In this document: piece after piece, positions 3,359 through 34,997 of the stretch
How positions within the stretch are numbered: the first letter of the stretch is position 1
Layout: the number at the start of each line of letters is the position of its first letter
Translations under genes and position numbers: made by a program
From: Dehalococcoidales bacterium
GTDB lineage: Bacteria; Chloroflexota; Dehalococcoidia; Dehalococcoidales; RBG-16-60-22
Assembly (NCBI GenBank): GCA_046760985.1
Contig: JBHIFE010000001.1
Location: 1 to 36,619, forward strand
DNA length: 36,619 nucleotides
Direction: 5' to 3'
Notes under the pieces: generated by a model
The model's input: only the letters and a program-made list of their open reading frames with translations
Told to the model about the DNA's origin: nothing
Databases searched by the model: none

Positions 3359-3360
3359 TT

Positions 3361-8037: not shown

Positions 8038-8063
8038 CTTTCTAAAAGGCGGCTGGCGGAACT

Positions 8064-8762: not shown

Positions 8763-8784
8763 CTAATGCCTTCCCTTCTGATTT

Positions 8785-11858: not shown

Positions 11859-13859
11859 TCACTCACTTTGAAGGTCAGGAACAATGCTTTCGTAATAATC
11901 CAATGACTTCGGATTAACTAGAGCATCCCTATTTACGACTACCCTACCATGTATTATGTTCGTGACCGCGATTTCCACTTTCTTCATGTTGAGCGTATAA
12001 GGGATGTCCGACACTTCAATAATTCTAGCCGGAACATGCCGCGGAGAGGCATTTTCACGAAGGGTTTTTCTAATTTTATTCTGCAAATCGTCTGTTAAGT
12101 TGTATCCCGTAGCGAGTTTAACAAAGAGGATAATACGCTGGTCGCCTTTCCACTCCTGTCCAATAGCCAGGCTATCGGCAACCTCCTCTAGCTTCTCTAC
12201 TTGGTTATATATTTCAGCGGTGCCAATGCGAACTCCTGAGGGTTTTAAGACAGCGTCAGAGCGACCAAAAAAGGTTATTCCCCTAGTATCACTATGAATC
12301 ATGATGTAATCTCCGTGACGCCATACCCTCGGGTAAATACTAAAGTAAGCCTCTTTATATCTCTCGCCATTCGGATCATTCCAGAAATAAAGTGGCATGG
12401 AGGGGGCAGGAGCTTCACAGACAAGCTCTCCCATTTGGTCAAGTACTGGGCTACCTTTTTCATCATAACAATTCACCTTCATTCCCAAAGCTGCCCTCTG
12501 TAATTCACCAGCATACACAGCGAGAGTAGGACTCCCGATAGCAAAACAGCCATTGATATCTGTGCCGCCAGAAATAGAATTAAAGTGTAGGTCTGCTTTA
12601 ATGGCTTTATATATGTATTCAAAACCCTCAGCCGAAAGAACTGAACCGGTTTGGGATATTTCCCGCAGTGATGACAAATCATAATCCTTTCCAGGCTCAA
12701 GCCCCTCAGTTCTAAGATAGTTGATGTAACTGGCACTGGTACCGAAAATTGTTATCTTCTCATCCTGTATCAGTTTCCACATGGCACCCGGATCAGGATA
12801 ATTGGGGTTACCATCATATAATACTATGGTAGCTCCTATGGCTAAGGAACTAAGCAGCCAGTTCCACATCATCCAACTGCAAGTGGTTATGTAGAAGATT
12901 GTATCCTCTCGCTTTAAGTCGGTATGAAGTATCAACTCCTTTAAATGATTGATGAGGACTCCGCCAGCTCCCTGAACCATGCACTTTGGCTTACCAGTTG
13001 TTCCTGAGGAAAACATGATAAATAGAGGGTGATCAGAAGGTAACTGCTCAAATTGAATTTCAGGTTGCTCTTCCCCAGCTATGAATTGATCATAATACAC
13101 AGAGTTAGGAATATGACTGATATCAGTTTTTTCTCCCGTATAACGAACCACGATAACTTTTTCCAAAGAGGGTATTCCCCTGACAATCTCGCCAGCGTTA
13201 GCTAAGGAATTAAAGGTCTTCCCCTTATAAAAATAGCCATCGGCCGTGAATAGAACCTTTGGTTTAATTTGACCAAGACGCTCCAGAGTTGCCTGCGCAC
13301 CGAGATCAGTAGCACAAGAAGACCATACCGCGCCAATACTGGTAGTAGCCAGCATAGCAGTAGCGGTCTCTATTAAATTAGGCATATAAGCCACTACCCT
13401 GTCTCCAGGCTTAACCCCTACATTGCGCAGAGATTTGGCAAGACGAGCCACGGAATCATAAAGTTCGGCATAGCTCATCCTGGCAGATTTCTGAGTTTCT
13501 CCTTTGAATATGAAAGCGAGATGGTCGTCTCTGTATCTCAACAGGTTCTCAGCAAAATTCAATCTGGCACCACCAAACCACTTAGCACCGGGAAACTTAC
13601 TTAAGTCGTCAACCACCTCGTCATACTGGCGAGAGGCTTTGATTGGGGCAAATTCCCACATAGCCGCCCAAAAGTCAGGTATCTTCTCAACTGACCAGTC
13701 ATATAGCTCATCATACGAGTCAATCGTAAGACCATATTTTTCATTGACAAAGCTAGTGAACCAGGTCAGGTTAGCTTGTTTCTTAATTTCCTCGGAGGGC
13801 TCCCAAATGGGCACCTTCACAGCACTCACTCCTTTAGCGTTTGGCTTTAACTCACTCAA
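11859..13859 (-). CDS. aacS: Acetoacetate-CoA ligase (acetoacetyl-CoA synthetase)
   Basis: 666 aa. The N-terminus IWEPSEE...YDELYDWSVEKIPDFWAAMWEF is characteristic of AacS. The AMP-binding motif is MFSSGTTGKPK. It lies 8 nt downstream of the BKACE gene. Confidence 0.85.
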   Translation of the reverse strand: MSELKPNAKGVSAVKVPIWEPSEEIKKQANLTWFTSFVNEKYGLTIDSYDELYDWSVEKIPDFWAAMWEFAPIKASRQYDEVVDDLSKFPGAKWFGGARLNFAENLLRYRDDHLAFIFKGETQKSARMSYAELYDSVARLAKSLRNVGVKPGDRVVAYMPNLIETATAMLATTSIGAVWSSCATDLGAQATLERLGQIKPKVLFTADGYFYKGKTFNSLANAGEIVRGIPSLEKVIVVRYTGEKTDISHIPNSVYYDQFIAGEEQPEIQFEQLPSDHPLFIMFSSGTTGKPKCMVQGAGGVLINHLKELILHTDLKREDTIFYITTCSWMMWNWLLSSLAIGATIVLYDGNPNYPDPGAMWKLIQDEKITIFGTSASYINYLRTEGLEPGKDYDLSSLREISQTGSVLSAEGFEYIYKAIKADLHFNSISGGTDINGCFAIGSPTLAVYAGELQRAALGMKVNCYDEKGSPVLDQMGELVCEAPAPSMPLYFWNDPNGERYKEAYFSIYPRVWRHGDYIMIHSDTRGITFFGRSDAVLKPSGVRIGTAEIYNQVEKLEEVADSLAIGQEWKGDQRIILFVKLATGYNLTDDLQNKIRKTLRENASPRHVPARIIEVSDIPYTLNMKKVEIAVTNIIHGRVVVNRDALVNPKSLDYYESIVPDLQSE

Positions 13860-13867
13860 GCCTACCT

Positions 13868-14791
13868 TTAGAAGTTTACTTTATCTAATCCTTTAAGACC
13901 TAGAATTTCTCTTGCCTCATCGGGTGTAGCTGGTTCCAAGCTTAACTCCCGAGCTATCCTCACAATCTTTTCTACCTGTTCAGCATTACTCTTAGCTTTG
14001 ACTCCCTTACCAACGTAAAGGCTATCCTCCATACCAACTCGGGCATTACCACCCATAATCAGTGACATGGTGCACATTGGCATCTGAGTCCGACCAGCGG
14101 CACAAACTGACCAAACAAAGTCGCCGATTGCTTCACGAGCAGTATTATAAAGGAATACCAGATTACTTGCTGACGGTTGAATGGATCCTAGAATGCCTAG
14201 GACAAATTGAAGATAAACAGGTTTTTTAATAGGATGCCCCTTCTCGAGCATGTAGGCTAGGTTATAAATCATGCCGGTATCGTATATTTCTATTTCCGGC
14301 TTTGTCCCATTTTCGGCAAAAGTTTTCAAATACTGCTCCAGTGACTTAAATGTATTAGGAAAGATAAGGTCTTTTGTCATCTCTAAATATTTCGGTTCCC
14401 AATCATACTTAAAGGTGTCTACTATTTCCGTACCTCGGGATATATTAAAATTTATCGACCCAAAATTACATGAGGCAAGCTCGGGCTTGAGGAGAGGTAT
14501 CGGCCTGAGCCGCTCCTCGACAGTCATCCCGAGACCCCCACCTGTGGTTACGCAAATAACCATATTACATCTGCTTTTTATATTGCCAACTATTTCCCTC
14601 ATTAATTCCACATCAGAACTAGGTTGTCCCGTTTCCGGATTACGGGCATGAATATGAGCCACTGCAGCTCCAGCCTCATAAGCTCGCACTGCCTCATCGG
14701 CAATTTGCTTTGGCGTGATGGGTAAGTATGGGCTCATGCTCGGAGTATGTATGCTACCAGTTATCGCTGCTGAAATAATAGCTTTTGCCAA
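13868..14791 (-). CDS. Beta-keto acid cleavage enzyme (BKACE/DUF849 family); candidate triacetate acetoacetate-lyase
   Basis: 307 aa. IISAAITGSIHTPSMSPYLPITPKQIADEAVRAYEAGAAVAHIHARNPETG is the typical BKACE N-terminus. TTG start with AAAGGAGGTGG SD 7 nt upstream. Confidence 0.85.
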   Translation of the reverse strand: MAKAIISAAITGSIHTPSMSPYLPITPKQIADEAVRAYEAGAAVAHIHARNPETGQPSSDVELMREIVGNIKSRCNMVICVTTGGGLGMTVEERLRPIPLLKPELASCNFGSINFNISRGTEIVDTFKYDWEPKYLEMTKDLIFPNTFKSLEQYLKTFAENGTKPEIEIYDTGMIYNLAYMLEKGHPIKKPVYLQFVLGILGSIQPSASNLVFLYNTAREAIGDFVWSVCAAGRTQMPMCTMSLIMGGNARVGMEDSLYVGKGVKAKSNAEQVEKIVRIARELSLEPATPDEAREILGLKGLDKVNF

Positions 14792-14830
14792 TTCTATTCC
14801 ACCTCCTTTCTATTCTGGGGGGCAGCATGA

Positions 14831-15445
14831 TTATCCCTTTTTCCTTTCCTTGGGAGCCCCGCGGTCATCCGGAACCTCGGATACCATATATGGAGTCCCA
14901 CCCTGACAGGCACGGCAGACTTCCCCATCATCAACCGGATAGGCTTCTCTACACAGGGGACAAATGGTTAATCCACCCCGGCGCTGTTTTTTCCTGAAAG
15001 GGGGGTTAACCTTAACCCGTTGGATGCCGCAGATATTTGATCCAGCTTCTCTGATCTGTTCTATAAGGAGCTTTGAGTCCTGTTCTTTTTTAGACTTTAG
15101 CTTGAAAAACCAGCTTTTGATCTCGGACCATACTTCTACCTTGGTCGGATCCAGAAAAACCCGTATCCCTTCACCCTGGTATTTCTCATAAATGGTTAAG
15201 GCAAAACGACCCATATTGATGACTTTGAGCCATCCGTTCCCTATGGTGCACGGGGTGAGAAGCTGTATTGCGTCAGGGAGACAGACGGGGGTTTCGCATA
15301 TGGCATCAAACAGTCCGTCTTTAGGAAGGTGCTTGAACGCCAGATCTACCATAAACCCCCCTATGACCACGCCCGGGGCAGCGTATCCGTGAAAGGATTT
15401 AACCAGATTTACATATTCTTCAAACGTATAGGAACAAATATTCAT
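14831..15445 (-). CDS. FmdE-family protein with C-terminal zinc ribbon
   Basis: HGYAAPGVVIGGFMVD...LPDAIQLLTPCTIGNGWLKV resembles the FmdE domain. The C-terminal CPLCREAYPV...CRACQ is a zinc ribbon. Confidence 0.7.
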   Translation of the reverse strand: MNICSYTFEEYVNLVKSFHGYAAPGVVIGGFMVDLAFKHLPKDGLFDAICETPVCLPDAIQLLTPCTIGNGWLKVINMGRFALTIYEKYQGEGIRVFLDPTKVEVWSEIKSWFFKLKSKKEQDSKLLIEQIREAGSNICGIQRVKVNPPFRKKQRRGGLTICPLCREAYPVDDGEVCRACQGGTPYMVSEVPDDRGAPKERKKG

Positions 15446-15611
15446 AAGTCACACAGTCAAATTTTCTGATTAAGAATTAAATAAAAGCCTTAAATCAGAC
15501 CTCGTTAATTTATTATAAAATTTCCAAAATGCGAGGTTTACAAATAACCTGAAGATACCAACAGTGCCCTTTCGCTTCATCGCAAAAGGCGCGCAACACT
15601 TTTACCTAAAA

Positions 15612-16454
15612 CTATAGAAAGATTGTCCCTACATTAAGACTCGTCTTCAAGTCAACCTCAAGCGTTTTCTTTTCATAGCCCGGATAAACAATTTCGAGTG
15701 TGTACTTGCCGCTATTTTCTTCAAGGTCATCAAACTTAAAATCACCATAGTTATCGGTCACAAACTCAGCAATTTTCTCATTTGAGGCGCCGACCAAAGT
15801 TACCTTGGCGCCTTCGGCACATTCATTTTTACTATCTACCTGAACCGCAACACTACCTCCAATGAAACATTTGGTAAACCGATACAGATTCTTGTAATAT
15901 ACACGTGGCTTTGTTTTGTATTTTGGCTCATAAGCTTCCAACTTCTCAGCTTTGATGATGTCCTGCATTTCAGAATCCTCGACATAACGCATGCATAACG
16001 CTCCAGTAGGGCAAGCCTGAACACACCGGGGCTCTTTCCATCCCTCATCCAGCAGGTGGGCGCAAAAGGTGCATTTTTGCGGTACATTACTCTCTTCGTT
16101 CCACCAGATGACCCCGTAAGGGCACGAATCGACAATATTTGTCTGTCCCTTTGCCTTATCTGGGTCAATGATGACGATGCCATCGTCCCTCTTATATATG
16201 GCTCCGTCCCCTGCTGTCTTGATACAGGGGGCATCATCGCAATGCAGGCACGGGACAGGTAGATAGGCGACATCAATAATAGGATATTGTCCCCTTTCCT
16301 TCCTCATGATATTCATCCACCTATGCCCAAGCCTGGGTTGTGACACCGAGTATCCCGGCCAATCATTGTCCACATGTTCATCCTTGCAGGCAAGGAAACA
16401 GTTATTACAGTCTTCGCATTTTTCCACATCAATGATCATGTGCCATTTTTTCAT
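15612..16454 (-). CDS. Transhydroxylase-type beta subunit 1 (three [4Fe-4S] motifs + C-terminal beta-sandwich domain)
   Basis: Start moved to [27 protein letters not shown]. Its ATG overlaps the alpha-1 TGA (ATGA). Cys clusters: [28 protein letters not shown]...CVQACP. The C-terminal KVTLVG...[10 protein letters not shown]...YTLEI is carboxypeptidase-regulatory-like. The layout matches my recollection of the small subunit of Pelobacter pyrogallol-phloroglucinol transhydroxylase. Confidence 0.85.
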
Positions 16455-19400
16455 TTTATACTCTCCGACCCCGTCCATTTTTCTATTTGCACAAGGCATG
16501 AATTTGCTGCCATACTGTGTGATTTTTTGATCATCATTCGGCTCGGAGTCAATTGATTAATACATCCGCCACGGTCTGCTGAATATCCCGGTTCACCCAC
16601 TGGGTCATAGATTGCCGAAGATTCGTACGAGTGAACAATTCCGGGAGGAACACGTTCGGTCACCTGTGCCGCACAAATTACGGCTCCCCTGTCATTGAAC
16701 ACCTTGACCAGATCATTCTCTTTGATTCCCCGGTCAGCAGCATCCTTCGAGTTGATTCTGACAATCCAGTAGTAATAACCGTCAATCAGGACTCGATGGT
16801 CCTTGATCTCGTTGATCCAGCTCTCCTTAGCATCGCCCATGGTGTGGAAGCTGAACCGGGGATGCGGGGTTATCAACTGTAACGGGTACTTTTCATAGAG
16901 CTCCGTGGTATGATGACCTTCCCAGGCGGGAATATATTTAGTCATGGTCGGTCTCTCCGGGTCATCTGGATCAAACCTTTTTAGGCTTGAACAAACAAAC
17001 TCTATCTTGCCCGATTGCGTCTGAAGCCCTTTCCCAAACTTCTCGGTATAGTCTGCCGGTAACGGTGCTATCTCCGGTGTGTCTTTTAGTCTATCCTCGG
17101 CAAACCATCTAAAGGATACCGGCGCCCGTAACTCCTCCTTGGGTGCGGGGATAACATAGTAACCCTTCTTAAGGAATTTCTTCCATGAAATGACCTTGGG
17201 GAGATCAGTGCCATCAAATAGTCGCTTGCACCAGTCAAATTCAGTCGCGCCCTCGGAAAATGGTGCTGAAAGCCCCAGCTTTTTTGTAATCTCAAGGAAA
17301 ATCTGAAAGTCTGATTTTGATTCACCCAGAGGTTCGATACACTTGTGTTGCATGATGGCGACACGGTGGTTACACTGGGTGAAGCTATGTTGGACATACC
17401 CGCCACAGTTGGCAAATTCACTAATATCCCAACGCTCAAAACTGGTGCAGGCGGGCAACAGGATATCAGCAAACTTGGCCTCGCCTTCAAACCAGATGGA
17501 CTGATTCACCACAAATTGCAGGTTGTCGGAGCGATAAGCCTTCACGTAGCGGTTCGTCTCGCTCATGGTGCCGAAATGAGAGCCGCCGTATTTGTAATAC
17601 ATCCGGATTGGTGCACTGCCTGGTGCCGGATACTCAAATTTTTGGAACTGACCTTCAATACTCTTGGTGTCAGTCGGATAACCGGACGTATGACTCTCCA
17701 GAATTGCTTCAGGAATATTCAGCCTTGGTACCCTCTGATAGACCGTATTTACGGTGGGGAGCTGAGGCATCCGCTGATACATACTGACAGCCAGCGCTGT
17801 AGCTTGTAGGTCGCCGGACAGACCCCCCTCTGCATAACCCGGAAAGAAAAATCCGGCGTCTACTGGTGCCCCTTGTTGCATACAACCCATATTCACACCG
17901 GGTTTGCCCAGACCCTGCATAGCCATGAGGCAGACCATGGAACGAGCCCACTCATTTCCAGTGGCACAGCGGCAGGCGCCGCCAAAACCGCTCAAGCCCC
18001 CGGCTGCCAGGTAAGTCTTTTTGGTTCCCCATTCTCTTGCCAAAGCCCGGACATCTTTTGCCGGAATTCCTGCTTCATTTTCCTGCCATTCGGGGGTTTT
18101 GGGTATGCCGTCTTCCTTGCCCAGGATGTAGTCTTTCCACTCGTCAAACCCGGTAGTCCGCTTGGCGACATACTCTTTGTCGTAGAGGTCTTCAGTGATC
18201 CAGACATAGGCAATGGCAAGGGCAAGAGCATTGCCTGTTGCCGGCCTGGGGGCAAACCACTTGCCGCCAAGCAGGGCAGCCGTGTGATTATAGAATGGAT
18301 CGATGTGTACCATTTTGATACCTAACTCTTTCAGCCATTGACGACGAACGGTTCCTTCAAACGCAGCGTAGATTCCGCTGGTGGCTTCCGGATCACTCGA
18401 CCAGAACACCACCATTTCACATTCTTTAAGACAATCTTCAACCGTGCCATAGGTCTCTGGAGCACCAAGCCGCATACTGTATCCCCAATGGTGCATGGCT
18501 CCCCAGTACCACCCCTCCCAACTATCCGGATTATGGACAACGGGGGTAAAACCGATCGAGTTAAAGAACCTGAGTCTGGCGCTTAACCAGTAGCCTAATA
18601 TTCCCCAGGTATGGTGGGATCCACTGCCGTTCAGGATGGCACCCGGACCATAATCTCTCTTAACTCGCTTGATCTCATTGGCAACAATATCTGTCGCCTC
18701 ATCCCAGCTGATCCGTTCATAGCCTGATATCCCTCTGTTCTGGCAATTCCGTTCGCCGTTTGGATCAAAATCAACCCGTTTCATGGGGTATAATAGCCTG
18801 TCCGGTGAATAGACCATCGATTTCCATGCTAACGTATGGGGTGAGATGGTCGTCTTTCGCGGAGGGGTAAACGTTTTGCCTCTGGCCTTAATGGTCCAGG
18901 GCGCTGCATCGCTGTCATCAAAGTCAATGGGCGTGATTCGCATTATTTTACCGTCCTTCACGTAAACAAAGACCGGCCCGCCATTGGTATTACTGGTATA
19001 TCTGGTTACGCCATTACCAACATTCGTTCCATATTTCGTGCCGACTGTCAGAGCTTGACTCAGTGTCTCCATAAACCAATATGTCAACTCATCAGGTCCT
19101 TCTAACCCTAATTGAAAGTTCTTCATGGCATTGATCATGGACAACTGATCCTTGGGTGGCATGAGAAATTCCACGCCCAAACGGGCACTTGTGAAGGTCA
19201 TACAAACATCAGGGCTGGAATGGATTCCTCTTCTTGAAATAATCTTACCGTCACTGAAGGTAAAATACCTACCCACTGAATTATCTTTAACTTTTATTTG
19301 TGCGGTTAAATTTTTTTCTTTGAGGCGGTTCTTGAACGACGGATGCATTATTGCTGCCCGTCTTAACGATAGCTTAAGTCCAAGAAGTACTATTGAGAGG

Positions 19401-19468
19401 GTCATATTTGCTATTATCAATGATTTTGATAATATCTTATCTACTATTATTGATTTCATATTTTCCAC
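16451..19468 (-). CDS. Transhydroxylase-type molybdopterin (MGD) alpha subunit 1, with a roughly 138-aa N-terminal SCP2-like extension
   Basis: From aa 163 onward ([23 protein letters not shown]...[13 protein letters not shown]...VFWSSDPE...[14 protein letters not shown]...[11 protein letters not shown]) it resembles the transhydroxylase large subunit as I remember it. It has no TAT signal and no N-terminal Fe-S Cys motif. The start is uncertain (GTG 19468, ATG 19459 or ATG 19348). Confidence 0.8.
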
Positions 19469-19540
19469 TCACTGGTTGTCTTGAGGCTACCTCGTTTCAG
19501 TCCCATTGGCAGCAGAACCGCTCAGACTGAGAAGACCAAT

Positions 19541-19873
19541 CTAATAGTTAATAACTACCAGCATACTCGCTGGCTTGTTGGTCTTATTGATTATCTCTCT
19601 CCCTTCATTGGGAGCGATGTAAACTGAATCCCACGGACCAAGAGTAACTTCTTCCTTCTTGGTCTTAACCGTGATTTCTCCGTTGAGGACGAAGTAGAAC
19701 TTCTCTGCTGGCGTTGCGCCGAATTCGGCTCCACCCCCGGGAAGAAAATGGGAAAGACCTACCCAGAACTTCTCAGCTCCTGTTTCCTCTTTACCGCTCA
19801 GCCTGAGAGCAACCATATTGAAATGCCCGGGGGCTTCATAGGGCTTAACCTGATCCAATTTAATCTTTTTCAT
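19541..19873 (-). CDS. Cupin-domain protein
   Basis: Start moved to MKKIKLDQVKPYEAPGHF (AGGAGG SD). The track's longer ORF overlaps the cyclase gene. GGGAEFGATPAEKFYFVLNGEITV...VYIAPNEGREIIN is a single cupin barrel. Confidence 0.7.
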   Translation of the reverse strand: MKKIKLDQVKPYEAPGHFNMVALRLSGKEETGAEKFWVGLSHFLPGGGAEFGATPAEKFYFVLNGEITVKTKKEEVTLGPWDSVYIAPNEGREIINKTNKPASMLVVINY

Positions 19874-19919
19874 AAATCGTCTCCTCCTGACATTGATATG
19901 ACAGCTCAGACAGCGGGGG

Positions 19920-20681
19920 CTACTGGTCGCCCTCATCCACGATAGCTACCAATCTCACGATAGACCCATCGCCTTTCACCCACCGGATAGGGAAGCCAGC
20001 AATGGTGACTCTCTTGCCCACGACTTGGTCAATGTCACCACCTACGTTTTCCCATCCCATAATGCCGTTGCGCAATATCAGGTTATGGCAGGGCTCCCAC
20101 TCAGGAAAGTCCTCCAGCACATCGTGTCCGGTTTCCCTCTTATACTCTTCACAAATGTCCGGTCGTAGTGGGCCCGGTCCATGTGGACCAATAGCTGTAG
20201 CCAGCGGATGATCCAGTGCTTGCTGGTCAACCCCGACCGCCTTCACTCCCTTTTCAACGAACCATTCGCCTGCCTCCTTGTACAGTCCGGGCGAATAGCA
20301 AAAGTACTCCACACTATCTGAGTATTTGGCATGCCAGTGGGTGTGGACAATGACAATATCGTTTTTTTCAATTTTAGGTCTTGCCTTCTCTAGATCCTCT
20401 GGGGTAATCACTTCCCACTTCTTCTTCGGGATGTCCACAATTACTCCAGTACCGTAGTACTTTTCCAGAGGAATCTCATCGGTAAACATTCCTCCCTCAA
20501 ACACATGTGCCGGCGAATCGGCGTGAGTGGTGCAGTGCATAGTAGTTGTAATTACCTGGGAGAGCACTCCAGATTTGGCATGATAATGCATACGCTCAAT
20601 CTTGACATCGGCAAAATACGGCCACAAAGGCACTTTGTCACCAAAAGGGTGACTCAAATCAACCAGCTTTACTTTTCCCAC
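19920..20681 (-). CDS. Cyclase-family (kynurenine formamidase/isatin hydrolase-like) metal hydrolase; candidate dihydrophloroglucinol cyclohydrolase
   Basis: MHCTTHADSPAH matches the HxGTHxDxPxH cyclase-family metal motif. 253 aa. GTG start with AAGGAGG SD. Confidence 0.8.
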   Translation of the reverse strand: MGKVKLVDLSHPFGDKVPLWPYFADVKIERMHYHAKSGVLSQVITTTMHCTTHADSPAHVFEGGMFTDEIPLEKYYGTGVIVDIPKKKWEVITPEDLEKARPKIEKNDIVIVHTHWHAKYSDSVEYFCYSPGLYKEAGEWFVEKGVKAVGVDQQALDHPLATAIGPHGPGPLRPDICEEYKRETGHDVLEDFPEWEPCHNLILRNGIMGWENVGGDIDQVVGKRVTIAGFPIRWVKGDGSIVRLVAIVDEGDQ

Positions 20682-20722
20682 AATAGAAACCTCCTTGAAT
20701 TTTTTGACTGCTTAATATACTA

Positions 20723-21487
20723 CTACCAGGTAGTCACACCGCCATCTACATAGAGGATTTGCCCAGTAACGAAATCCGACGCCTTTGAGGCAAGAAATAT
20801 GGTAGGACCGACAATATCCTCCGGCATTCCCCAGCGACCAAGTGGAATACGAGACCTCATCCTCTTGGCATACTCAGGGTCGGCTAAGGCGGGACGGGTA
20901 AGGTCAGTCTCCACAATAGTGGGCGCCACCGCATTTACCAGCACATTATGCTTCGCCCACTCGCAAGCCAGCGTTCGCGTCAGAGTGTCAACCGCTCCTT
21001 TACTGGCACAATAAGCGGCATAGTCTGCGGGGAGACCATATCTACCCCTCACCGATGATAAGTTTATGATCTTACCGCCACCCTGTTTTATCATCTCCCG
21101 TCCAACTGCCTGGCAGCAGAGAAAGGTCCCGCGGGTGTTAATATCCATGACCTGTTGCCACTCATTAATTGGGAAAGTGTCGGCAGGTTTGCGAATCGCC
21201 AAACCGGCAGCATTCACTAGAATATCAATGCGGGGAAATACCTCCAAAATTTTCTTCACCATATCCGCCACTGATTGCTCCTGAGTAACATCTACGGTAA
21301 CCGCCAGCGCTTTCCTGCCTTTATTGCGTATCTCCTCGGCTACCTTCTCTAAGTGCTCAAGTCGACGGCTTGCTACGATGACATCCGCGCCGTAATCAGC
21401 TAATCCCAGAGCTAGAGCGTGACCAATCCCGCCGGCACCACCAACCACTAAAGCGACCTTGCCCCTCAAATCAAATAAATCGGTCAT
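20723..21487 (-). CDS. Classical short-chain dehydrogenase/reductase, probably NADP(H)-preferring; candidate phloroglucinol reductase
   Basis: GGAGGIG cofactor motif, NAAG, and catalytic S...YxxxK (SSVRG...YCASK). The basic pair SRR after beta-2 suggests NADP(H). This is the first gene of the long minus-strand operon. Confidence 0.85.
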   Translation of the reverse strand: MTDLFDLRGKVALVVGGAGGIGHALALGLADYGADVIVASRRLEHLEKVAEEIRNKGRKALAVTVDVTQEQSVADMVKKILEVFPRIDILVNAAGLAIRKPADTFPINEWQQVMDINTRGTFLCCQAVGREMIKQGGGKIINLSSVRGRYGLPADYAAYCASKGAVDTLTRTLACEWAKHNVLVNAVAPTIVETDLTRPALADPEYAKRMRSRIPLGRWGMPEDIVGPTIFLASKASDFVTGQILYVDGGVTTW

Positions 21488-21648
21488 ATTAAACTCCTTT
21501 TCTAAAATTTCCTGCGGTTATCGTAACTATCGGTTATATTATAATAACTTTTGCCTATACTGCAACACAGAATTCTCAGTATAAATAGATTCATTGCTCT
21601 TTGCTTACCATAGGTCTTGGGTAAGATTGTATTCTGAAACTGGGGCTG

Positions 21649-21678
21649 TTGACATCAAAATGAGAGGTTGTTTATATT
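21649..21678 (+). promoter_or_regulatory. Sigma-70-like promoter for the universal stress protein gene
   Basis: TTGACA (21649-21654), an 18-nt spacer, then TATATT (21673-21678), about 45 nt upstream of the coding start. Confidence 0.35.
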
Positions 21679-21723
21679 GTTTATTATTAAAGCTGAATAG
21701 GAGGAGAAATTTTTAAAAATATT

Positions 21724-22179
21724 TTGGTTCCATTAGACGGCTCCAAGCTGGCGGAGTGTGTTCTTCCCTACGTAGAAGCCCTAGCAACGGGCTGCACGGC
21801 GGAGGAGGTTATCTTGGTCAGCGTCACAGAACGCATCAAGGGCTATAGAGTTATATCTGATTACAGTCAGCCACTTGGGGAGCGTTTAGTACCTGAGGCA
21901 GTGGGTAAGAAAGAAAGACAAGCCCAAAAATATCTTAACAGAGTAGCCCAGGGACTTAAAGACAAAGGCATTAACGTGCAAACACTAGTACTCCTTGGGA
22001 ATCCTGCTGAGGAGATCGTCTTCTATGCAGATACCAAGCATTGTGACCTTATTGTTATGGCTAGTCATGGACGGTCTGGCCCTAGCCGGTGGGTTCATGG
22101 TAGTGTTGCTGATAAAGTCTTCAGAGCTAGTTGCGTACCGGTTCTGATGGTGCGAGCGCCGGGCTGTATAACTGTATAA
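21724..22179 (+). CDS. Universal stress protein (UspA family)
   Basis: VPLDGSKLAE...DLIVMASHGRSGPSRWVHGSVADKVFRASCVPVLMV is the USP signature. The track start is a TTG and the true start is unclear (the frame is open from 21697). Confidence 0.8.
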   Translation: MVPLDGSKLAECVLPYVEALATGCTAEEVILVSVTERIKGYRVISDYSQPLGERLVPEAVGKKERQAQKYLNRVAQGLKDKGINVQTLVLLGNPAEEIVFYADTKHCDLIVMASHGRSGPSRWVHGSVADKVFRASCVPVLMVRAPGCITV

Positions 22180-22233
22180 TTAGTACTTGATTCCCGAGCC
22201 AAAAAGGGGCACCGAAGAGATAATGAATAAGGT

Positions 22234-23187
22234 CTATGTCGATTTGCCCCGTTCCTTTTGTGCCCAGTCCAGGAGGTAATCTAAGAAGTCTTTCCTAGAC
22301 CTCTCTACTTCTTCGGCAGACCAAGTGTAGAAACCCTGACCCGTTTTGAATCCCAGTTCTCCGTTTTCTACCTTTTTCCTTAAAAGAGGCGAGGGACCCG
22401 GAGAAGAGTCAATATACTTTAGAATGTAATCGTGGATAGCTAAGGTCAGATCAAGTCCCACCATATCGGCGGTCTCCAGCGGCCCCAAAACTGGGAGCCG
22501 AATGCCGAATCCCTTCTTAATCACGTCATCAACGCTGGCCGGGTCAGCAATACCATTTTCCACAATGGAGATAGCCTCTCGCCACAAGGCGTGCTGAAGC
22601 CGGTTACCTATAAACCCTGGTACATCCTTCATGACCTTCACCGGGTGTTTCCCGGCATTCTTCAAGAATCGATAAGTTGTTTCTACAGCTTCCTCAGAAG
22701 TTTCCCTTCCCTTAATTACTTCTACCAGTGGAATTATATAGGGGGGGTTCCAAAAATGAGTCCCTAGAATTCTTTCCCTGTTGTGAGCTTTGGATGCGAT
22801 TTCGGTTATACTCATTACGGATGTATTTGTAGTCAAAATGGTCTCTACAGGACAAAGCTGATCCAAATCCTGAAAAGCCTTCTGCTTTAACTCCAGATTT
22901 TCGGTGATAGCCTCAATAACTAGTTGTGCATCTGAGGTTGCCTGCCCCATATCCGTAGTGGTTTTTATCCTGCTTACGATTGTCTCGATTTCACTCTCCA
23001 ATACAACTCCTTTTCTGGCCATCATGGAGAGGTTTGCTCTGATATTTTCAACAGCCTTTGAGAGCAACCCGTTTTCGATATCCAACAGATAAACATTGTA
23101 GTTCTTAGAGGCAAAAATCTGGGCAATTCCGTGTCCCATCAAACCCGCACCAATCACAGAAATATTCCTAATGTCTTCCGCTTGCAT
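22234..23187 (-). CDS. 3-hydroxyacyl-CoA dehydrogenase-family NAD-dependent dehydrogenase; candidate 3-hydroxy-5-oxohexanoate dehydrogenase
   Basis: ISVIGAGLMGHGIAQIFA Rossmann N-terminus. HFWNPPYIIPLVEVI and GFIGNRL are motifs of the HADH/Hbd/L-carnitine dehydrogenase family. 317 aa. Confidence 0.85.
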   Translation of the reverse strand: MQAEDIRNISVIGAGLMGHGIAQIFASKNYNVYLLDIENGLLSKAVENIRANLSMMARKGVVLESEIETIVSRIKTTTDMGQATSDAQLVIEAITENLELKQKAFQDLDQLCPVETILTTNTSVMSITEIASKAHNRERILGTHFWNPPYIIPLVEVIKGRETSEEAVETTYRFLKNAGKHPVKVMKDVPGFIGNRLQHALWREAISIVENGIADPASVDDVIKKGFGIRLPVLGPLETADMVGLDLTLAIHDYILKYIDSSPGPSPLLRKKVENGELGFKTGQGFYTWSAEEVERSRKDFLDYLLDWAQKERGKST

Positions 23188-23324
23188 AAATACCCTCCTT
23201 TATCCCGTTTTCCTTACTTTTAATGGATGGCACCCCTCATAAAATACTATCGTAAAAGGTATTTAACTTTTATTCTGCCGCCCTTTAAGCCAGCTTCAGA
23301 ACGGGAAACATCTCAAGCTAAGCC

Positions 23325-23663: not shown

Positions 23664-24174
23664 AATCAGTCCTCCTTAACTGCTCGAACACTGTTAGGGT
23701 TTATTATAATAATAGTTTGATATGCGTTCAATACTACAACTCCGGGCTGCACCTGTGGGCGTACGGAATGTAGTTACCACTTCGGAGAAGGAGTTTGGGT
23801 TCACTGGCTGTGGGGTGCTCGTACTTTCCCAGCGATCCCGGAAAACTATATTGACAATCACACCAATAAGAATTATACTCTGGTGCAATAACCTAAAATG
23901 ACATAACTGTAGTATCGGTTTAAGAGGCTTATAGGATGAAAGGGGGTGCTGGAACTGCTTGTTAATACGGCGATGGCTGGTGCCCTTTTCATTTGAACAA
24001 TACTAGGTATACAAAGTATAGTAAAGTCTTTGGGAGGCACAATACTAAAAATACGAATAATCTGGTGAAGGTGGTGAGGAAATAGTGGTCATAGGTGGAA
24101 GGGGGTGATGCCTATACCGATGTGACAAAGCAGCTAGACAAACCTCGGTGTATTAAAGGAAGGAGGAAGTGACA

Positions 24175-25515
24175 ATGAAAAAGTTTCTTTTAATACCACT
24201 GGTGATTGTATTGGTAAGCGTGCCGATTTTCACCGGTTGTCCGGCACCGGCTCCAGAAGAAATTCTTATAGGCACTACTGCGCCAACGACAGGCATGTTT
24301 GCCGGTTTCGGTCAGCAAACATTTGGGATGCAAGCGGCTATCGATGATATCAATGCACTGGGTGGAGTCTATGTGGCAGAGTATGGAAAGAAATTGCCCG
24401 TCAGACTTATAGTCCGCAATAACGAGAGCGACCCGGCAAAGGTAGGACCTCTTACCGAAGACCTGGTTCTCCGCGACAAGGTACACGTCCTTATATCACC
24501 TGATGAACCTTCTACGCTGCACAACGATATATCTCGGGTAGGTAACAAGTATGGGGTCCCACAGATCATTGCTGGTGGTCCATTTGAGCCCTGGTATCAC
24601 GGTATGCGGGCGGAGGTTGAAGGACATTGGCCTTACACTTGGTTTACCGGTTTTGCCATAGCTACCCCAGCTGCACCGCCACGCGATATTCCGGGATTTA
24701 CCCTAGTGGACACGTGGTTTATGTATATGGATAGGGTCGGCGCCCTGGCAAACACTAATGGGATAGCGGGGGTTTTCGCCTCGGATGACCCTGACGGCAT
24801 AGGTTGGTATGCACTATTCCCTGGGCTGCTAGAAGAAAATGGTTACAATGTTATCGGCGAAGAAAAAGAATTAGGCTTGTTTCCTATGGGGACTACGGAC
24901 TTTTCGGCTATAATAGACGAGTGGATGGCTAATAATGTGGAAATACTTTGGGGCAATTGCCCTGGTCCTGATTTTGGCACCTTGTGGAGCCAAGCCTACG
25001 CGAAAGGCTTTAGACCTAAGATAGTTTTGGTTGGAAGAGCAGCTCTTTTCCCAGTAGATGTAATCGCCTGGGGTACAGAGCCACCCCTAGGGTGGGGTGT
25101 CGGGACAGAGGTATGGTGGAGCCCAGCATATCCACCAGAAGACTTCCCCGGTATTGGTGGCAGAACCGCAGCATCGCTCGCTGAGGAATGGTTAGCCACG
25201 GGCAAACCATTGAACCGGGGTATCGGACATGGCTATCTGGCAGTTCAAGTCATGCTTGATGCCATCGAGAGAGCGGGCAGTCTTGACGGAGATGCGATTA
25301 ATAACGCCCTGGCGGAAACCGATATGATGACCATTGATGGCTGGGTGAAGTTTGACCCAGAGTCACACTTCAGCCACATGCCGCTCGCCTTTGGTCAGTG
25401 GTATTATGAGCCTGCTAAAACACCACCGTGGACACTTTATATAACTGCTTCCGCACTAGATTACATACCGGAAGAGGCCGACGTGGTATTCCCCGTTTCT
25501 GAGCTGTATCCATGA
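24175..25515 (+). CDS. ABC transporter substrate-binding lipoprotein (type I periplasmic-binding fold, Leu/Ile/Val-binding-protein family)
   Basis: MKKFLLIPLVIVLVSVPIFTGC is a lipobox signal. ILIGTTAPTTGMFAGFGQQTFGMQAAIDDINALGGV is a typical LIVBP-family N-terminus. Start set to ATG 24175 (AGGAGGA 8 nt upstream). Confidence 0.85.
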   Translation: MKKFLLIPLVIVLVSVPIFTGCPAPAPEEILIGTTAPTTGMFAGFGQQTFGMQAAIDDINALGGVYVAEYGKKLPVRLIVRNNESDPAKVGPLTEDLVLRDKVHVLISPDEPSTLHNDISRVGNKYGVPQIIAGGPFEPWYHGMRAEVEGHWPYTWFTGFAIATPAAPPRDIPGFTLVDTWFMYMDRVGALANTNGIAGVFASDDPDGIGWYALFPGLLEENGYNVIGEEKELGLFPMGTTDFSAIIDEWMANNVEILWGNCPGPDFGTLWSQAYAKGFRPKIVLVGRAALFPVDVIAWGTEPPLGWGVGTEVWWSPAYPPEDFPGIGGRTAASLAEEWLATGKPLNRGIGHGYLAVQVMLDAIERAGSLDGDAINNALAETDMMTIDGWVKFDPESHFSHMPLAFGQWYYEPAKTPPWTLYITASALDYIPEEADVVFPVSELYP

Positions 25516-25549
25516 CCTATAAACCTAAGGTATAGGACAGGCTGAGGAG

Positions 25550-25590
25550 ACCGATATGATGACAATTTGTCATCATATCGGTTTCTTTTA
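25550..25590 (+). terminator. Strong intrinsic terminator/attenuator between the binding-protein gene and the ABC ATPase genes
   Basis: Perfect 15-bp inverted repeat ACCGATATGATGACA (25550-25564) / TGTCATCATATCGGT (25568-25582) with a 3-nt loop, followed by TTCTTTTAT. Confidence 0.7.
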
Positions 25591-25620
25591 TATAATGGGT
25601 GTTAACATTTGGGCGATAAT

Positions 25621-26337
25621 ATGGAAACGCCGGTTCTTTCAGTTGCTGGAGTAAATAAGCATTTCGGGGGAGTAGTTGCTATTAGCGACCTAAGTTTTGA
25701 TGTGCAGGCAGGTGAAGTCTTAGGTTTGATGGGCCCCAACGGTGCTGGCAAGACAACACTAATAAATGTCATATCTGGTGAGTACAAGCCTGACTCTGGA
25801 ACAGTAAAGTTTAAAGGAAATAACATCGTGGGTCTCCCCCCGCATAAAATTTGCCACCTTGGCATTGCTAGAACCTATCAGATTCCTCAGCCCTTTGTCA
25901 ATTTAACGGCTCTGCAGAATATCGCGGTGGCGGCAACATATGGAAGAGGTCTTAGCAAATCTGCTGCTGAGAGGGAAGCTAGCAAACTACTTGATACTGT
26001 AGGCCTTTCAGAAAGGAAAGACATGCTCGCAAAAGATTTGGTAACGGTAACTCTCAAAAGGCTTGAATTAGCTAGAGCCTTAGCCATCAATCCCACACTA
26101 CTGCTGATTGATGAAGTGGCTGCCGGCTTAACCGAAGCGGAAATCCCAAAGATATTAGACCTCCTAAAAGAAATACACGAAGTGGGCATAACAATTATAT
26201 TAATCGAACATGTTATGAAGGTAATGATGGAGGCAGTGGACAGGATTATAGTGATGGATAAAGGCGTGAAAATCGCCGAAGGCACGCCGAATGAGGTAAT
26301 GGAAGATAGGAAAGTAATTGAAGCCTATCTCGGTTAA
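25621..26337 (+). CDS. livG: Branched-chain-type ABC transporter ATP-binding protein (LivG-like)
   Basis: Walker A GPNGAGKTT, signature and Walker B LLLIDEVAAGL, and the LivG-type C-terminus VIEAYLG. Confidence 0.9.
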   Translation: METPVLSVAGVNKHFGGVVAISDLSFDVQAGEVLGLMGPNGAGKTTLINVISGEYKPDSGTVKFKGNNIVGLPPHKICHLGIARTYQIPQPFVNLTALQNIAVAATYGRGLSKSAAEREASKLLDTVGLSERKDMLAKDLVTVTLKRLELARALAINPTLLLIDEVAAGLTEAEIPKILDLLKEIHEVGITIILIEHVMKVMMEAVDRIIVMDKGVKIAEGTPNEVMEDRKVIEAYLG

Positions 26338-26375
26338 TGGTATCAATATCAATAGGTTTATTTTAAGGTGAGGCA

Positions 26376-27095: not shown

Positions 27096-27115
27096 AGTCG
27101 CTTAGGGTGCTATAG

Positions 27116-27982: not shown

Positions 27983-27989
27983 GAGGAAT

Positions 27990-31111: not shown

Positions 31112-31113
31112 CT

Positions 31114-34977: not shown

Positions 34978-34997
34978 TTATCTCTATATCCTCCCGT

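Follow-up and report, generated by a model that had tools for sequence, protein, structure and literature searches.

Does the contig of a Dehalococcoidales MAG carry a full anaerobic route from trihydroxybenzenes to acetoacetyl-CoA, and which of its genes would perform each step? The window, that is, the whole stretch of 36,619 nt analysed here, is the entire contig. We consider it likely that the genes between ~11.9 and 33.7 kb form a catabolic island that serves the anaerobic use of trihydroxybenzenes through phloroglucinol. A known oxygen-free route for plant and algal trihydroxybenzenes would then be gathered in one cluster of an uncultured bacterium.

A putative island and its conservation

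The features of the window are:

11859..13859, minus: acetoacetate-CoA ligase, AacS (TIGR01217, NF002937)
13868..14791, minus: BKACE, candidate triacetate (3,5-dioxohexanoate):acetyl-CoA transferase (PF05853, 355 bits)
14831..15445, minus: FmdE-like protein with treble-clef zinc finger (PF02663, PF23475)
15612..16454, minus: beta1, BthL-like iron-sulfur subunit with C-terminal beta-barrel domain (Fer4_11, CarboxypepD_reg)
16451-19468, minus: AthL-like alpha1 ORF (NCBI call: 1002 aa from 19459)
16451..19039, minus: catalytic core of alpha1, AthL-family Mo-bisPGD subunit
19040..19459, minus: SCP2-fold N-terminal domain of alpha1 (AF2 model and Foldseek)
19541..19873, minus: small cupin, ~110 aa (PF07883)
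19920..20681, minus: cyclase-family metal hydrolase, candidate dihydrophloroglucinol cyclohydrolase, DPGC (PF04199)
20723..21487, minus: classical SDR with Arg-Arg NADP(H)-type site, candidate phloroglucinol reductase by position
22234..23187, minus: 3-hydroxyacyl dehydrogenase (3HCDH family) of TfD type, candidate (S)-3-hydroxy-5-oxohexanoate dehydrogenase
24169..28958, plus: Liv-type ABC transporter (Peripla_BP_6 binding protein, two ATPases, two permeases)
28925..30204, minus: 236-aa ORF and NTPase_1/DUF2478 protein, downstream of alpha2-beta2
30272..31126, minus: beta2, BthL-like iron-sulfur subunit, partner of alpha2 (Fer4_11, CarboxypepD_reg)
31114..33732, minus: alpha2, second AthL-family catalytic subunit, 872 aa (PF21423, PF00384, PF01568)
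33766..35426, minus: SCP-x-type thiolase-like protein and DUF35 (OB-fold/zinc-ribbon) protein, upstream of alpha2

Family-model scans recovered every ORF named in the preliminary description, on the minus strand and with the coordinates and families given there. Judged by sequence, all island enzymes clearly belong to their families, and the equivalog status of AacS and the AthL-family membership of both alpha subunits are equally evident. Three items had not been part of that description: the second AthL-like alpha/beta pair (30272-33732), the ABC transporter (24169-28958) and the ~140 aa by which alpha1 is extended at its N-terminus.

Conservation was counted in other genomes, over 41 loci that are anchored on the cyclase and span 15 kb or more. 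Homologs of the SDR occur in 37 of these loci, of the cupin in 33 and of the TfD-type gene (HAD) in 31; 17 have a BKACE and 15 an AthL-like alpha. Because these genes recur across the 41 loci, their co-location is not a matter of chance. The SDR-cyclase-cupin-HAD-BKACE set, with or without an AthL-like alpha/beta pair, is found again in many MAGs of several phyla (labelled Dehalococcoidia, Deltaproteobacteria/Desulfobacterales, Thermoleophilia/Actinomycetota, Acidobacteriota and Moorellaceae), and the synteny of the cluster is evidently kept across phyla.

The link between cupin and cyclase is nearly as tight as that between SDR and cyclase. Its ORF spans 19541-19936, with a likely true start at 19873, and the canonical HxH...E motif is absent from its sequence. 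It shares 57.5% identity with the cupin of a Firmicute phloroglucinol cluster (L086) and 37% with the one whose gene lies immediately upstream of athL in the P. acidigallici-like locus L087. This uncharacterised protein belongs to the conserved core of phloroglucinol and transhydroxylase clusters. The families that the preliminary description had mapped one-to-one onto the known chemistry were right, but its mapping had left the cupin out.

A proposed route from phloroglucinol to acetoacetyl-CoA

The proposed route would start with import of the phenolic substrate, for which the Liv-type ABC transporter is the probable uptake system. Homologs of its binding protein occur in 13 of the 41 cyclase-anchored loci, and transporter components in 14-22 loci (identity up to 82%), often adjoining alpha1 or the cyclase. 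Pyrogallol-type isomers could then be converted to phloroglucinol through hydroxyl transfer by alpha1/beta1 and/or alpha2/beta2. With NADPH, the SDR would reduce phloroglucinol to dihydrophloroglucinol, the cyclase-family Mn hydrolase would open the ring to give (S)-3-hydroxy-5-oxohexanoate, and the TfD-type dehydrogenase would convert this to triacetate (3,5-dioxohexanoate). BKACE would turn triacetate and acetyl-CoA into acetoacetyl-CoA and acetoacetate, the latter being activated by AacS. We infer all of these steps, including the substrate of each Mo enzyme and the source of thiolase activity. In agreement with the preliminary description, no gallate decarboxylase of the UbiD/LpdC type was found among the window ORFs scanned. 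The route from phloroglucinol to acetoacetate and acetoacetyl-CoA, which is physically linked to AthL-family Mo enzymes as that description had noted, matches the one laid out by Zhou et al. 2023 (PMC10470551).

The SDR had been mapped to the phloroglucinol reductase step, but it is not the ortholog of the characterised phloroglucinol reductases (PGRs). It is 33% identical to PGR 5G4K and 41% identical to a Firmicute PGR, whereas its best solved relative is the gluconate 5-dehydrogenase Gno (1vl8, 41.5% identity). Among models and structures, those of gluconate 5-dehydrogenase and KduD give it the highest scores. Its place beside the PGR clade comes only from a neighbour-joining tree that is weak and has two outgroups. 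SDRs of this type (71-88% identity) adjoin the cyclase in ~25 Dehalococcoidia loci. It is mainly because this adjacency is conserved that we regard the SDR as a candidate phloroglucinol reductase, though not a clear ortholog of characterised PGRs.

The assignments of the next two enzymes were upheld. The cyclase has the diagnostic DPGC residues Trp20-Pro-Tyr22 and H49/H53/D55/H59 (the HxxTHxDxPxH metal motif), as in the published alignment of CsDPGC. It is 39.6% identical to a Firmicute DPGC, and on the arylformamidase model TIGR03035 it reaches only 63 bits (cut-off 223). The dehydrogenase is 51% identical to CsTfD (machine-read text) and 53-54% identical to Firmicute TfD, compared with 40% to Hbd 4KUH. 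It carries the diagnostic TfD residues: equivalents of the CoA-binding Lys56/Asn221 are lacking and Ser/His/Asn are kept, and it shares a C-terminal extension and TfD-specific motifs with TfD. A plus-strand Usp gene (21724-22179) lies between the TfD-type gene and the operon, and the former is therefore a separate transcription unit.

The reading of BKACE as a triacetate lyase survived in part. Its best model is NF053538 (3,5-dioxohexanoate:acetyl-CoA transferase), on which it scores 418.1 bits, 12 bits short of the cut-off of 430, versus 264 bits on the Kce model. However, its clade differs from that of the clostridial TAL (CsTAL), and it is 39% identical to a Firmicute TAL. Among PDB entries it scores 371 bits to 3lot, 269 bits to Paracoccus BKACE15 (8rio) and 181 bits to Kce (2y7d); activity of BKACE15 on 3,5-dioxohexanoate has been confirmed experimentally. 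Ile14 occupies the position of Kce Glu14 and CsTAL Trp16, and in BKACE an Ile replaces the Kce residue responsible for 5-amino group binding. BKACE may provide TAL function from a clade other than that of CsTAL. AacS, the predicted acetoacetyl-CoA synthetase, passes the equivalog TIGR01217 with 873.5 bits (cut-off 520.9) and scores 904.8 bits on NF002937 (cut-off 639); its homologs occur in 8 of the 41 loci.

An alternative explanation might be that the downstream genes degrade another cyclic 1,3-dione or beta-keto acid, such as a compound of the resorcinol or methylphloroglucinol type or a BKACE substrate of the carnitine/lysine type, with the SDR acting as a sugar-acid or polyol dehydrogenase. 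The best-scoring models of the SDR, the sub-threshold score of BKACE on its best model and the wide in vitro substrate range of the BKACE clade (PMC11961710) would suit such a substrate, but the published residue signatures in cyclase and HAD, the Ile of BKACE and the identical five families in a Firmicute ortholog of the characterised cluster would not. Moreover, AthL-family enzymes repeatedly adjoin these genes. The characterised member of that family makes phloroglucinol, and the established resorcinol/cyclohexanedione route is not known to need a hydroxyacid dehydrogenase step. We consider this alternative very improbable and retain phloroglucinol as the predicted intermediate. It is less improbable, but still unlikely, that the thiolase-like/DUF35 pair is an acetoacetyl-CoA thiolase completing the route, as the preliminary description had proposed. 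The pair lies directly upstream of alpha2 in the same orientation, is moderately similar to the archaeal DUF35-associated acetyl-CoA acetyltransferase model NF053570 (214 bits, cut-off 600), and the model scan found neither a canonical acetoacetyl-CoA thiolase nor a second thiolase in the window. Yet the protein scores far under all thiolase-model cut-offs (36 bits on the canonical model TIGR01930, cut-off 240), its best match is a 'lipid-transfer protein' (PRK06059, 352 bits, cut-off 424), the DUF35 partner weakly resembles BbsA, and a homolog occurs in only 1 of the 41 loci. Genomes normally encode thiolase elsewhere, as a housekeeping function. Membership of this pair in the pathway is doubtful.

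Two AthL-family molybdenum enzymes

Among solved structures, AthL and BthL are by a wide margin the closest to alpha1 and beta1: alpha1 scores 1133 bits to AthL (4v4c_A; 57.4% identity), against 254 to DMSO reductase, and beta1 298 bits to BthL (4v4c_B). The alignment of beta1 begins at Met16 of its ORF (15612-16499), the true start, which overlaps the alpha1 stop.

Even so, alpha1 belongs to a distinct SCP2-fused subfamily and is not a plain AthL. At AthL positions 144/153/154/174/175/176/354/404/560 its signature is H-W-L-D-S-W-F-Y-Y. Arg153-His154 and Trp354 of AthL are replaced (Arg153 by Trp), while His144, Asp174, Ser175, Tyr404 and Tyr560, which we take to be catalytic in AthL, are kept. 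All 14 sequences of the subfamily have W-L-F at 153/154/354, always with the SCP2 domain, and R153W is one of just five strictly subfamily-discriminating positions in 819 alignment columns. A role of Arg153 and other AthL active-site residues was reportedly described by Messerschmidt et al. in 2004.

Neither P. acidigallici AthL nor alpha2 has the ~140-aa N-terminal extension, but it is present in 14/14 alpha1-type loci and conserved in >100 homologs of 970-1030 aa. Pfam SCP2 matches it with an E-value of only 0.17. Searched with Foldseek, its AF2 model (pLDDT 80.9) best matches UbiJ-SCP2 (6h6o, E 2.5e-5), a structure whose deposition names it a ubiquinone synthesis protein. Sterol carrier proteins and the SCP2 domains of alkylsulfatases are also among the top hits. 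The preliminary description was correct in assigning the in-operon enzyme to the AthL family, but owing to the SCP2 fusion and the replaced residues the pyrogallol-to-phloroglucinol step is not securely assigned to this gene. The gene order alpha1-beta-FmdE is found again in L003, L005, L010, L089 and L091, and in L004 FmdE follows alpha2-beta2. The FmdE-like protein accompanies the alpha/beta pair as a conserved partner and may be a maturation or accessory factor.

In contrast, alpha2 has an AthL-like architecture, is 58.8% identical to AthL, and its signature H-R-H-D-S-W-W-Y-Y equals that of AthL at all nine positions checked. Its subfamily shows up to 66% identity to AthL; alpha2 and its relatives lack the extension and retain R-H-W at 153/154/354, apart from a few with a change at 154 or 354. 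Its partner beta2 is 40% identical to BthL of locus L087. Of the two, alpha2 is a better candidate than alpha1 for the classical pyrogallol-phloroglucinol transhydroxylase. The 236-aa ORF, for which the model scan gave no family match, and the NTPase_1/DUF2478 protein also adjoin alpha2 and phloroglucinol genes in L038 and L050; they are a recurrent accessory module.

Possibly, the two Mo enzymes split the work, with alpha2/beta2 as the true transhydroxylase and alpha1/beta1 serving another phenol or mode; we hold this view tentatively, at somewhat less than an even chance. Alpha1/beta1 might act on hydroxyhydroquinone or on isomers of tetrahydroxybenzene, as happens in the stepwise transhydroxylations of Pelobacter massiliensis. 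It could also make the tetrahydroxybenzene co-substrate, or perform a net hydroxylation in which electrons pass via the beta-subunit clusters to a quinone that the SCP2 domain would hold. Such a division is consistent with the separation of the two subfamilies, R153W included, and with the structural resemblance of the extra domain, which is closest to a ubiquinone synthesis protein. Some genomes (L004, L076, L089, L090) have two or three paralogous pairs next to each other, and alpha1-beta-FmdE lacks nearby phloroglucinol genes in 4 of 7 alpha1-anchored loci, which also argues for it. However, many Desulfobacterota-type loci (L002, L007, L010, L013) have alpha1 without alpha2 inside the phloroglucinol operon, so that alpha1 can be the sole nearby Mo enzyme feeding the pathway, and its remaining presumed catalytic residues are intact. 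The island as a whole is still best read as a route through phloroglucinol.

Relation to known clusters

Compared to the known route, the in-cluster Mo enzyme is of an undescribed kind, having a lipid-carrier-like domain added to it, and a conserved small cupin accompanies the pathway. The Firmicute cluster L086 has the same five families as the island described here, cupin included, and its DPGC is 83% identical to the characterised CsDPGC (machine-read sequence).

Gene organization of the contig

The window is a complete 36,619-bp MAG contig. Its main run (listed from the 5' end), its second run and the genes around them are arranged as follows.

Genes of the window
20723-21487, minus strand: SDR, first gene (5' end) of the main run
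19920-20681, minus strand: cyclase, second in the main run
19541-19873, minus strand: cupin, third in the main run, with its start corrected to MKKIKL
16451-19459, minus strand: alpha1, fourth in the main run, with its start corrected to three codons into the ORF
15612-16454, minus strand: beta1, with its start corrected to Met16 of the ORF; overlaps the alpha1 stop
14831-15445, minus strand: FmdE-like gene, sixth in the main run
13868-14791, minus strand: BKACE, seventh in the main run
11859-13859, minus strand: AacS, last in the main run
22234-23187, minus strand: 3HCDH-family gene (HAD), upstream of the main run, beyond a plus-strand Usp gene
24169-28958, plus strand: Liv-type ABC transporter, from family matches
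Second run, minus strand: DUF35, thiolase-like gene, alpha2 (31114-33732), beta2 (30272-31126), an ORF of no family, and an NTPase
7515-11133, minus strand: dCache/HAMP/GAF histidine kinase, OmpR-type response regulator and lone receiver domain, just downstream of AacS

Because of the intervening plus-strand Usp gene, the HAD gene forms a separate transcription unit. As the preliminary description had pointed out, a gallate decarboxylase is absent: the window has no UbiD-type gene. A scan of the whole window returned no Rfam family at gathering thresholds, so the intergenic gaps are not explained by a Moco or other riboswitch. Predicted promoters and terminators over 11000-24300 did not outnumber those of shuffled sequence, and were therefore not used for operon boundaries. 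The two-component system at 7515-11133 was considered as the regulator of the cluster but rejected as a conserved part of it, as it has no homologs near the cluster in other genomes.

The GC content is 0.43-0.45 across AacS, BKACE, FmdE and beta1 (11000-17000), versus 0.50-0.53 in 1-10000 and in alpha1 (16000-19000). This contrast, together with the 88-92% identity of the cyclase to copies in MAGs labelled as Deltaproteobacteria, Desulfobacterales and Thermoleophilia, suggests that the module recently spread horizontally.

The minus strand of the contig also carries a respiratory-type module (1397-7408), consisting of an NrfD-like membrane subunit, a TAT-signal 4Fe-4S protein, a multihaem cytochrome c, a cytochrome b (C-terminal)/cytochrome c fusion, a cytochrome b (N-terminal) and a Rieske protein, followed by a Band7/SPFH protein. 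Its make-up suggests a hybrid between parts of alternative complex III and of a bc complex. Upstream of the TfD-like gene, an ORF of 112 aa (23325-23663, minus strand) shows a faint DsrE-like match (E 0.006), and a small ORF near the cluster in a related locus (L090:17297-17500) has a weak one.

Two subfamilies of AthL-like molybdenum enzymes

Our results show that alpha1 and alpha2 represent two AthL subfamilies, a dichotomy computed by comparing 27 alpha sequences of the window and of related loci at AthL positions 144, 153, 154, 174, 175, 176, 354, 404 and 560. The active-site positions were chosen from the AthL crystal structure that Messerschmidt reportedly described in 2004. We take Ser175 to be the Mo ligand, Asp174, His144, Tyr404 and Tyr560 to be active-site residues, and Arg153-His154 and Trp354 to be residues of the substrate pocket. 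His144, Asp174, Ser175, Tyr404 and Tyr560 are conserved in both alpha1 and alpha2, with Ser175 in the context NPDSWEG in both. Alpha2 itself is identical to AthL at all nine positions, including the Arg-His pair and the Trp. Its type shows the AthL pattern H-R-H-D-S-W-W-Y-Y, with a few exceptions at 154 or 354, lacks an N-terminal extension and is up to 66% identical to AthL. In contrast, the sequences of the alpha1 type (14/14) all show H-W-L-D-S-W-F-Y-Y and are extended at the N-terminus by 133 residues or more. Only five of the 819 aligned columns are constant in each subfamily yet differ between the two, and R153W is one of them.

The Mo enzyme of the main run had been described as a transhydroxylase of the AthL type, converting pyrogallol to phloroglucinol. 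In the AthL/BthL reaction, the hydroxyl group passed to pyrogallol comes from 1,2,3,5-tetrahydroxybenzene. The relationship to AthL is borne out. Alpha1 scores 1133 bits against 4V4C_A versus 254 against DMSO reductase, and the AthL-specific first domain PF21423 is found in both alpha1 (E 2.8e-32) and alpha2 (E 9.7e-22). Identity to AthL is 57.4% for alpha1 and 58.8% for alpha2, and the two are 59% identical to each other. Likewise, beta1 matches 4v4c_B with 298 bits over residues 1-269, and Fer4_11 and CarboxypepD_reg are found in both beta1 and beta2. Each beta subunit comprises a ferredoxin part and, at the C-terminus, a barrel domain. However, the pocket and the architecture of alpha1 depart from those of AthL. 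With the AthL architecture taken as ~875 aa without added domains, alpha2 (872 aa) fits, whereas alpha1, a protein of 1002 aa annotated as a "molybdopterin-dependent oxidoreductase", does not.

An artefact of ORF calling might produce such an extension, but this explanation was rejected, since both its sequence and its length are conserved and an SCP2 fold is predicted. The extension occurs in more than 100 cluster representatives of 970-1030 aa, which are 79-94% identical and come from MAGs labelled as Chloroflexota, Dehalococcoidia, Deltaproteobacteria and other phyla. An AlphaFold2 model of alpha1 residues 1-165 reached a pLDDT of 80.9, and a Foldseek search with the model of the extension retrieved only SCP2-fold proteins (UbiJ-SCP2, SCP2 domains of alkylsulfatases and sterol carrier proteins), with E-values down to 2.5e-5, a probability of 1.0 and a TM-score of ~0.55 on the target. 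The Pfam SCP2 model matched the extension at an E-value of only 0.17. The predicted fold is the same as in the SCP2 domains of the UbiJ/UbiT type and of alkylsulfatases, at a sequence identity of 12-19%; unlike these, the domain of alpha1 is fused to a Mo-bisPGD enzyme.

Judged by its residues, alpha2 would be the conservative choice for the pyrogallol-using Mo enzyme of the window. We regard it as possible, rather than probable, that the alpha1 subfamily is a distinct polyphenol Mo enzyme and not a pyrogallol transhydroxylase, and, separately, that the cupin accounts for a missing, overlooked step of the phloroglucinol pathway or assists it. The substrate of alpha1 might be another hydroxybenzene, and its SCP2 domain might hold a quinone or another hydrophobic partner, which would turn hydroxyl transfer into net hydroxylation.

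Gene-order maps show that alpha1 or alpha2 pairs directly adjoin the five-gene core in MAGs labelled as Deltaproteobacteria/Desulfobacterales, Dehalococcoidia, Thermoleophilia/Actinomycetota and Moorellaceae. When loci were anchored on alpha1 (n=7), phloroglucinol genes were adjacent in 3/7 and the order alpha1-beta-FmdE was found in 4/7; in a fifth, the Desulfobacterota-type cluster L004, FmdE follows a second alpha/beta pair. Another of the seven (L089:2413-14442) has three tandem AthL-like alpha/beta pairs (alpha of 866, 860 and 1000 aa), with a Peripla_BP_6 binding protein in front and FmdE behind, an arrangement reminiscent of the three sequential transhydroxylations of Pelobacter massiliensis. 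The module alpha2-beta2-orf236-NTPase recurs in two other loci (L038 and L050). RidA/L-PSP genes (Ribonuc_L-PSP) adjoin AthL-like genes at L089:111-554 and L090:3982-4410; the window has none.

A putative route from phloroglucinol to acetyl-CoA

The enzymes PGR (phloroglucinol reductase), DPGC (dihydrophloroglucinol cyclohydrolase), TfD ((S)-3-hydroxy-5-oxohexanoate dehydrogenase) and TAL (triacetate acetoacetate-lyase) of Clostridium scatologenes (prefix Cs) have been characterised and their diagnostic residues given (Zhou et al., 2023; PMC10470551). Our CsDPGC and CsTfD references are machine-read alignments from the supplement of that study. PGR and TAL were compared via the proteins of a Firmicute phloroglucinol cluster (L086); the DPGC of this cluster and the machine-read CsDPGC share 83% identity.

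In the proposed route, a phenolic substrate would be taken up, probably via the ABC system, and an AthL-family enzyme would convert it to phloroglucinol; we infer both steps. The SDR would then reduce phloroglucinol with NADPH, the cyclase-family hydrolase would open the ring, and the TfD-type enzyme would oxidise the 3-hydroxy group. The resulting triacetate would be cleaved with acetyl-CoA by the BKACE, yielding acetoacetyl-CoA and acetoacetate, of which the latter would be activated by AacS.

Ring opening by the cyclase is well supported by its sequence signature. The preliminary description proposed a cyclohydrolase, and this agrees with the DPGC signature and with a score of only 63 bits on the arylformamidase model (cut-off 223). 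The protein belongs to PF04199, has the metal motif H49, H53, D55, H59, and is 39.6% identical to the Firmicute DPGC. Its W20-P21-Y22 aligns with 'RWPY' of CsDPGC in the published alignment; Trp20 and Tyr22 of DPGC stand where isatin hydrolase has Ile32 and Leu34 (PMC10470551). The ~50-aa clostridial insert of C. scatologenes DPGC is missing from the window cyclase. Some Dehalococcoidales loci, such as L015 (~8362) and L038 (~7774), have a second, divergent cyclase paralog, 33-40% identical to that of the window, beside the main DPGC-like gene.

Oxidation of the 3-hydroxy group by HAD is likewise well supported, and its earlier assignment as a candidate 3-hydroxy-5-oxohexanoate dehydrogenase fits its sequence: HAD is nearer to TfD than to Hbd and carries the TfD signature. 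Its identity is 51-54% to TfDs (references partly machine-read from PDF) versus 40% to Hbd 4KUH. The catalytic Ser, His and Asn are retained, Val and Arg occupy the CoA-contact positions Lys56 and Asn221 of Hbd, and the motifs NTS, THFWNPP and GNRLQH as well as a C-terminal extension are common to HAD and TfD.

The SDR is the weakest link of the proposed pathway. It had been named as the phloroglucinol reductase; its adjacency to the cyclase is conserved, but its nearest characterised relative is not a PGR. The gap between the two genes is 41 bp, and the same SDR type (71-88% identity) lies immediately upstream of the cyclase in ~25 Dehalococcoidia loci. The window SDR shares 33% identity with the solved PGR 5G4K and 41% with the Firmicute PGR, compared with 41.5% for a Thermotoga gluconate 5-dehydrogenase. 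The top PDB match is gluconate 5-dehydrogenase 1vl8 (209 bits), with 5G4K outside the top 60; for the SDR of the L004 cluster, 5G4K is the best solved match. The NADPH-type site of PGR is a T(G)R(S/N) motif after strand 2 (PMC10470551). At this site the window SDR reads A-S-R-R, which keeps the Arg but not the Thr and the Ser/Asn. A small neighbour-joining tree, with two outgroups and no support values, places the window SDR type beside the PGR clade. Since the SDR lacks clear PGR orthology, its assignment to phloroglucinol reduction rests on gene context.

For the BKACE, the proposed function as triacetate lyase is supported by the best family model, but its clade differs from that of CsTAL. 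It scores 418.1 bits on NF053538 (3,5-dioxohexanoate:acetyl-CoA acetone transferase; cut-off 430), and the next model is Kce with 264. Among solved structures it is related to 3LOT (371 bits) and to Paracoccus denitrificans BKACE15 (8RIO, 269 bits), the latter reported to accept 3,5-dioxohexanoate in vitro. The Zn-site motifs HIH and GMED are kept (HIHAR, VGMEDS). Glu14 of Kce contacts the 5-amino group, and its non-acidic replacement was used as a criterion for the BKACE. The window protein reads 'TGSIH', with Ile14 at the position of Kce Glu14 and CsTAL Trp16, and the Firmicute TAL reads 'TGAW'; the Kce sequence there is presumably 'TGAE'. The Firmicute TAL is 39% identical to the window BKACE and scores best on the Kce model (308 bits; NF053538 only 234). 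Based on this identity and model placement, the window uses another BKACE clade, probably for the same reaction as TAL.

Activation of acetoacetate is also well supported, as the predicted AacS passed the equivalog TIGR01217 (873.5 bits, cut-off 520.9). By contrast, the thiolase-like gene (with DUF35 at 33766-35426) is probably not an acetoacetyl-CoA thiolase: it scored 36 bits on TIGR01930 (cut-off 240) and 214 on NF053570 (cut-off 600), and its best match is the lipid-transfer protein PRK06059 (352 bits, cut-off 424). Hence, thiolysis to acetyl-CoA, a step that we infer, would fall to an enzyme without a secure candidate in the window.

The cupin (~110 aa) is 57.5% identical between the window and the Firmicute cluster, above every pathway enzyme (39-54%), and is without the canonical HxH...E metal motif. 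The only curated model that matches it is NF050094 'beta-D-galactosidase' (86.6 bits, cut-off 175), named after Rv1717 of Mycobacterium tuberculosis. Rv1714-Rv1718 may be the same five-gene set. Zhou et al. list M. tuberculosis among the carriers of the phloroglucinol cluster and mention no cupin (PMC10470551); the paper on Rv1717 does not mention the neighbouring genes, and our literature search found no paper linking a cupin with phloroglucinol reductase. In view of its genomic context, the name 'beta-D-galactosidase' may be misleading for this cupin family. A 37%-identical cupin (9098-9442) also lies directly upstream of athL-bthL in L087, a locus whose AthL is 96% identical to that of P. 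acidigallici. This locus has a gallate-decarboxylase-type set (UbiD/LpdD/UbiX, 20131-22628) 7.5 kb downstream, no PGR, DPGC, TfD or BKACE genes within 10 kb, and no FmdE. Its distribution ties the cupin to phloroglucinol itself or to a step common to both modules.

Distribution and comparison with known systems

A scan of species-representative genomes, anchored on a four-sequence alignment of the cyclase, gave 80 loci from several phyla with a cyclase identity of 70-92%. All are from MAGs except one isolate, Alteribacillus sp. (L058), and none is from a characterised organism. Among the 41 of these loci of at least 15 kb, homologs were found of the SDR in 37, the cupin in 33, HAD in 31, the BKACE in 17, the AthL-like alpha in 15, the ABC binding protein in 13, AacS in 8 and the thiolase-like protein in 1.

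When tannins, flavonoids and algal phlorotannins are degraded anaerobically, their breakdown is funnelled through phloroglucinol. Dehalococcoidia rank among the most abundant bacteria of anoxic sediments, and to our knowledge their carbon sources are poorly known. With this contig, polyphenol mineralisation in the group gains a concrete genetic basis that can be tested. Furthermore, transferring the name "pyrogallol transhydroxylase" by homology to all AthL-like genes lumps together at least two subfamilies that differ in pocket and architecture. The conserved cupin, the FmdE-like protein and the SCP2 domain are cheap, well-defined targets in the search for missing pathway functions.

The chemistry of the pathway has been known since 2023, and the first mention of AthL-like operons in Chloroflexi dates from 2013. 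Two or three such operons per genome were found in the sediment Chloroflexi/Dehalococcoidia RBG-2, RBG-1351 and DEH-C11, and interpreted as polyphenol use (Hug, 2013, PMC3971608; Wasmund, 2016, PMC4959651). Both studies are older than the description of the downstream pathway, and the passages cited here describe no linkage to PGR, DPGC, TfD or BKACE, and no SCP2 fusion, cupin or FmdE. Joint annotation of pgthAB and PGR is now routine in metagenome studies. The published cluster survey lists no Chloroflexi, and the host of the window, Dehalococcoidales, is absent from it (PMC10470551); our literature search found no paper linking Dehalococcoidia with the full phloroglucinol route. Noteworthy are the SCP2-fused alpha1, in which a pocket residue is altered, the conserved cupin, the FmdE-like partner, and the non-orthologous SDR and BKACE.

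Compared to the C. scatologenes cluster (PMC10470551), the window has the same four enzyme families, and the order of their reactions is unchanged. The two share Trp20/Tyr22 and the metal motif of DPGC, the TfD signature, and a non-acidic residue at the position of Kce Glu14; the cupin gene is also present in L086, a close relative of the C. scatologenes cluster. Yet this environmental version departs from the clostridial model in several respects. Its SDR, 33-41% identical to known PGRs, is not the best-hit ortholog, and its BKACE belongs to the 310-aa NF053538 clade instead of the CsTAL clade. This is the same ~310-aa clade as that of P. denitrificans BKACE15 (8RIO), with the window score 12 bits under the NF053538 cut-off. 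AacS replaces the CoA transferase CtfAB, and the pathway genes are accompanied by linked genes for Mo transhydroxylases, FmdE and an ABC transporter. Compared to AthL/BthL of P. acidigallici (4V4C), alpha1 carries the SCP2-fold domain in addition, and its residues at 153/154/354 are Trp-Leu-Phe. In the P. acidigallici-like locus L087, athL is flanked by the cupin and a UbiD-type gallate decarboxylase, and not by genes of the phloroglucinol pathway.
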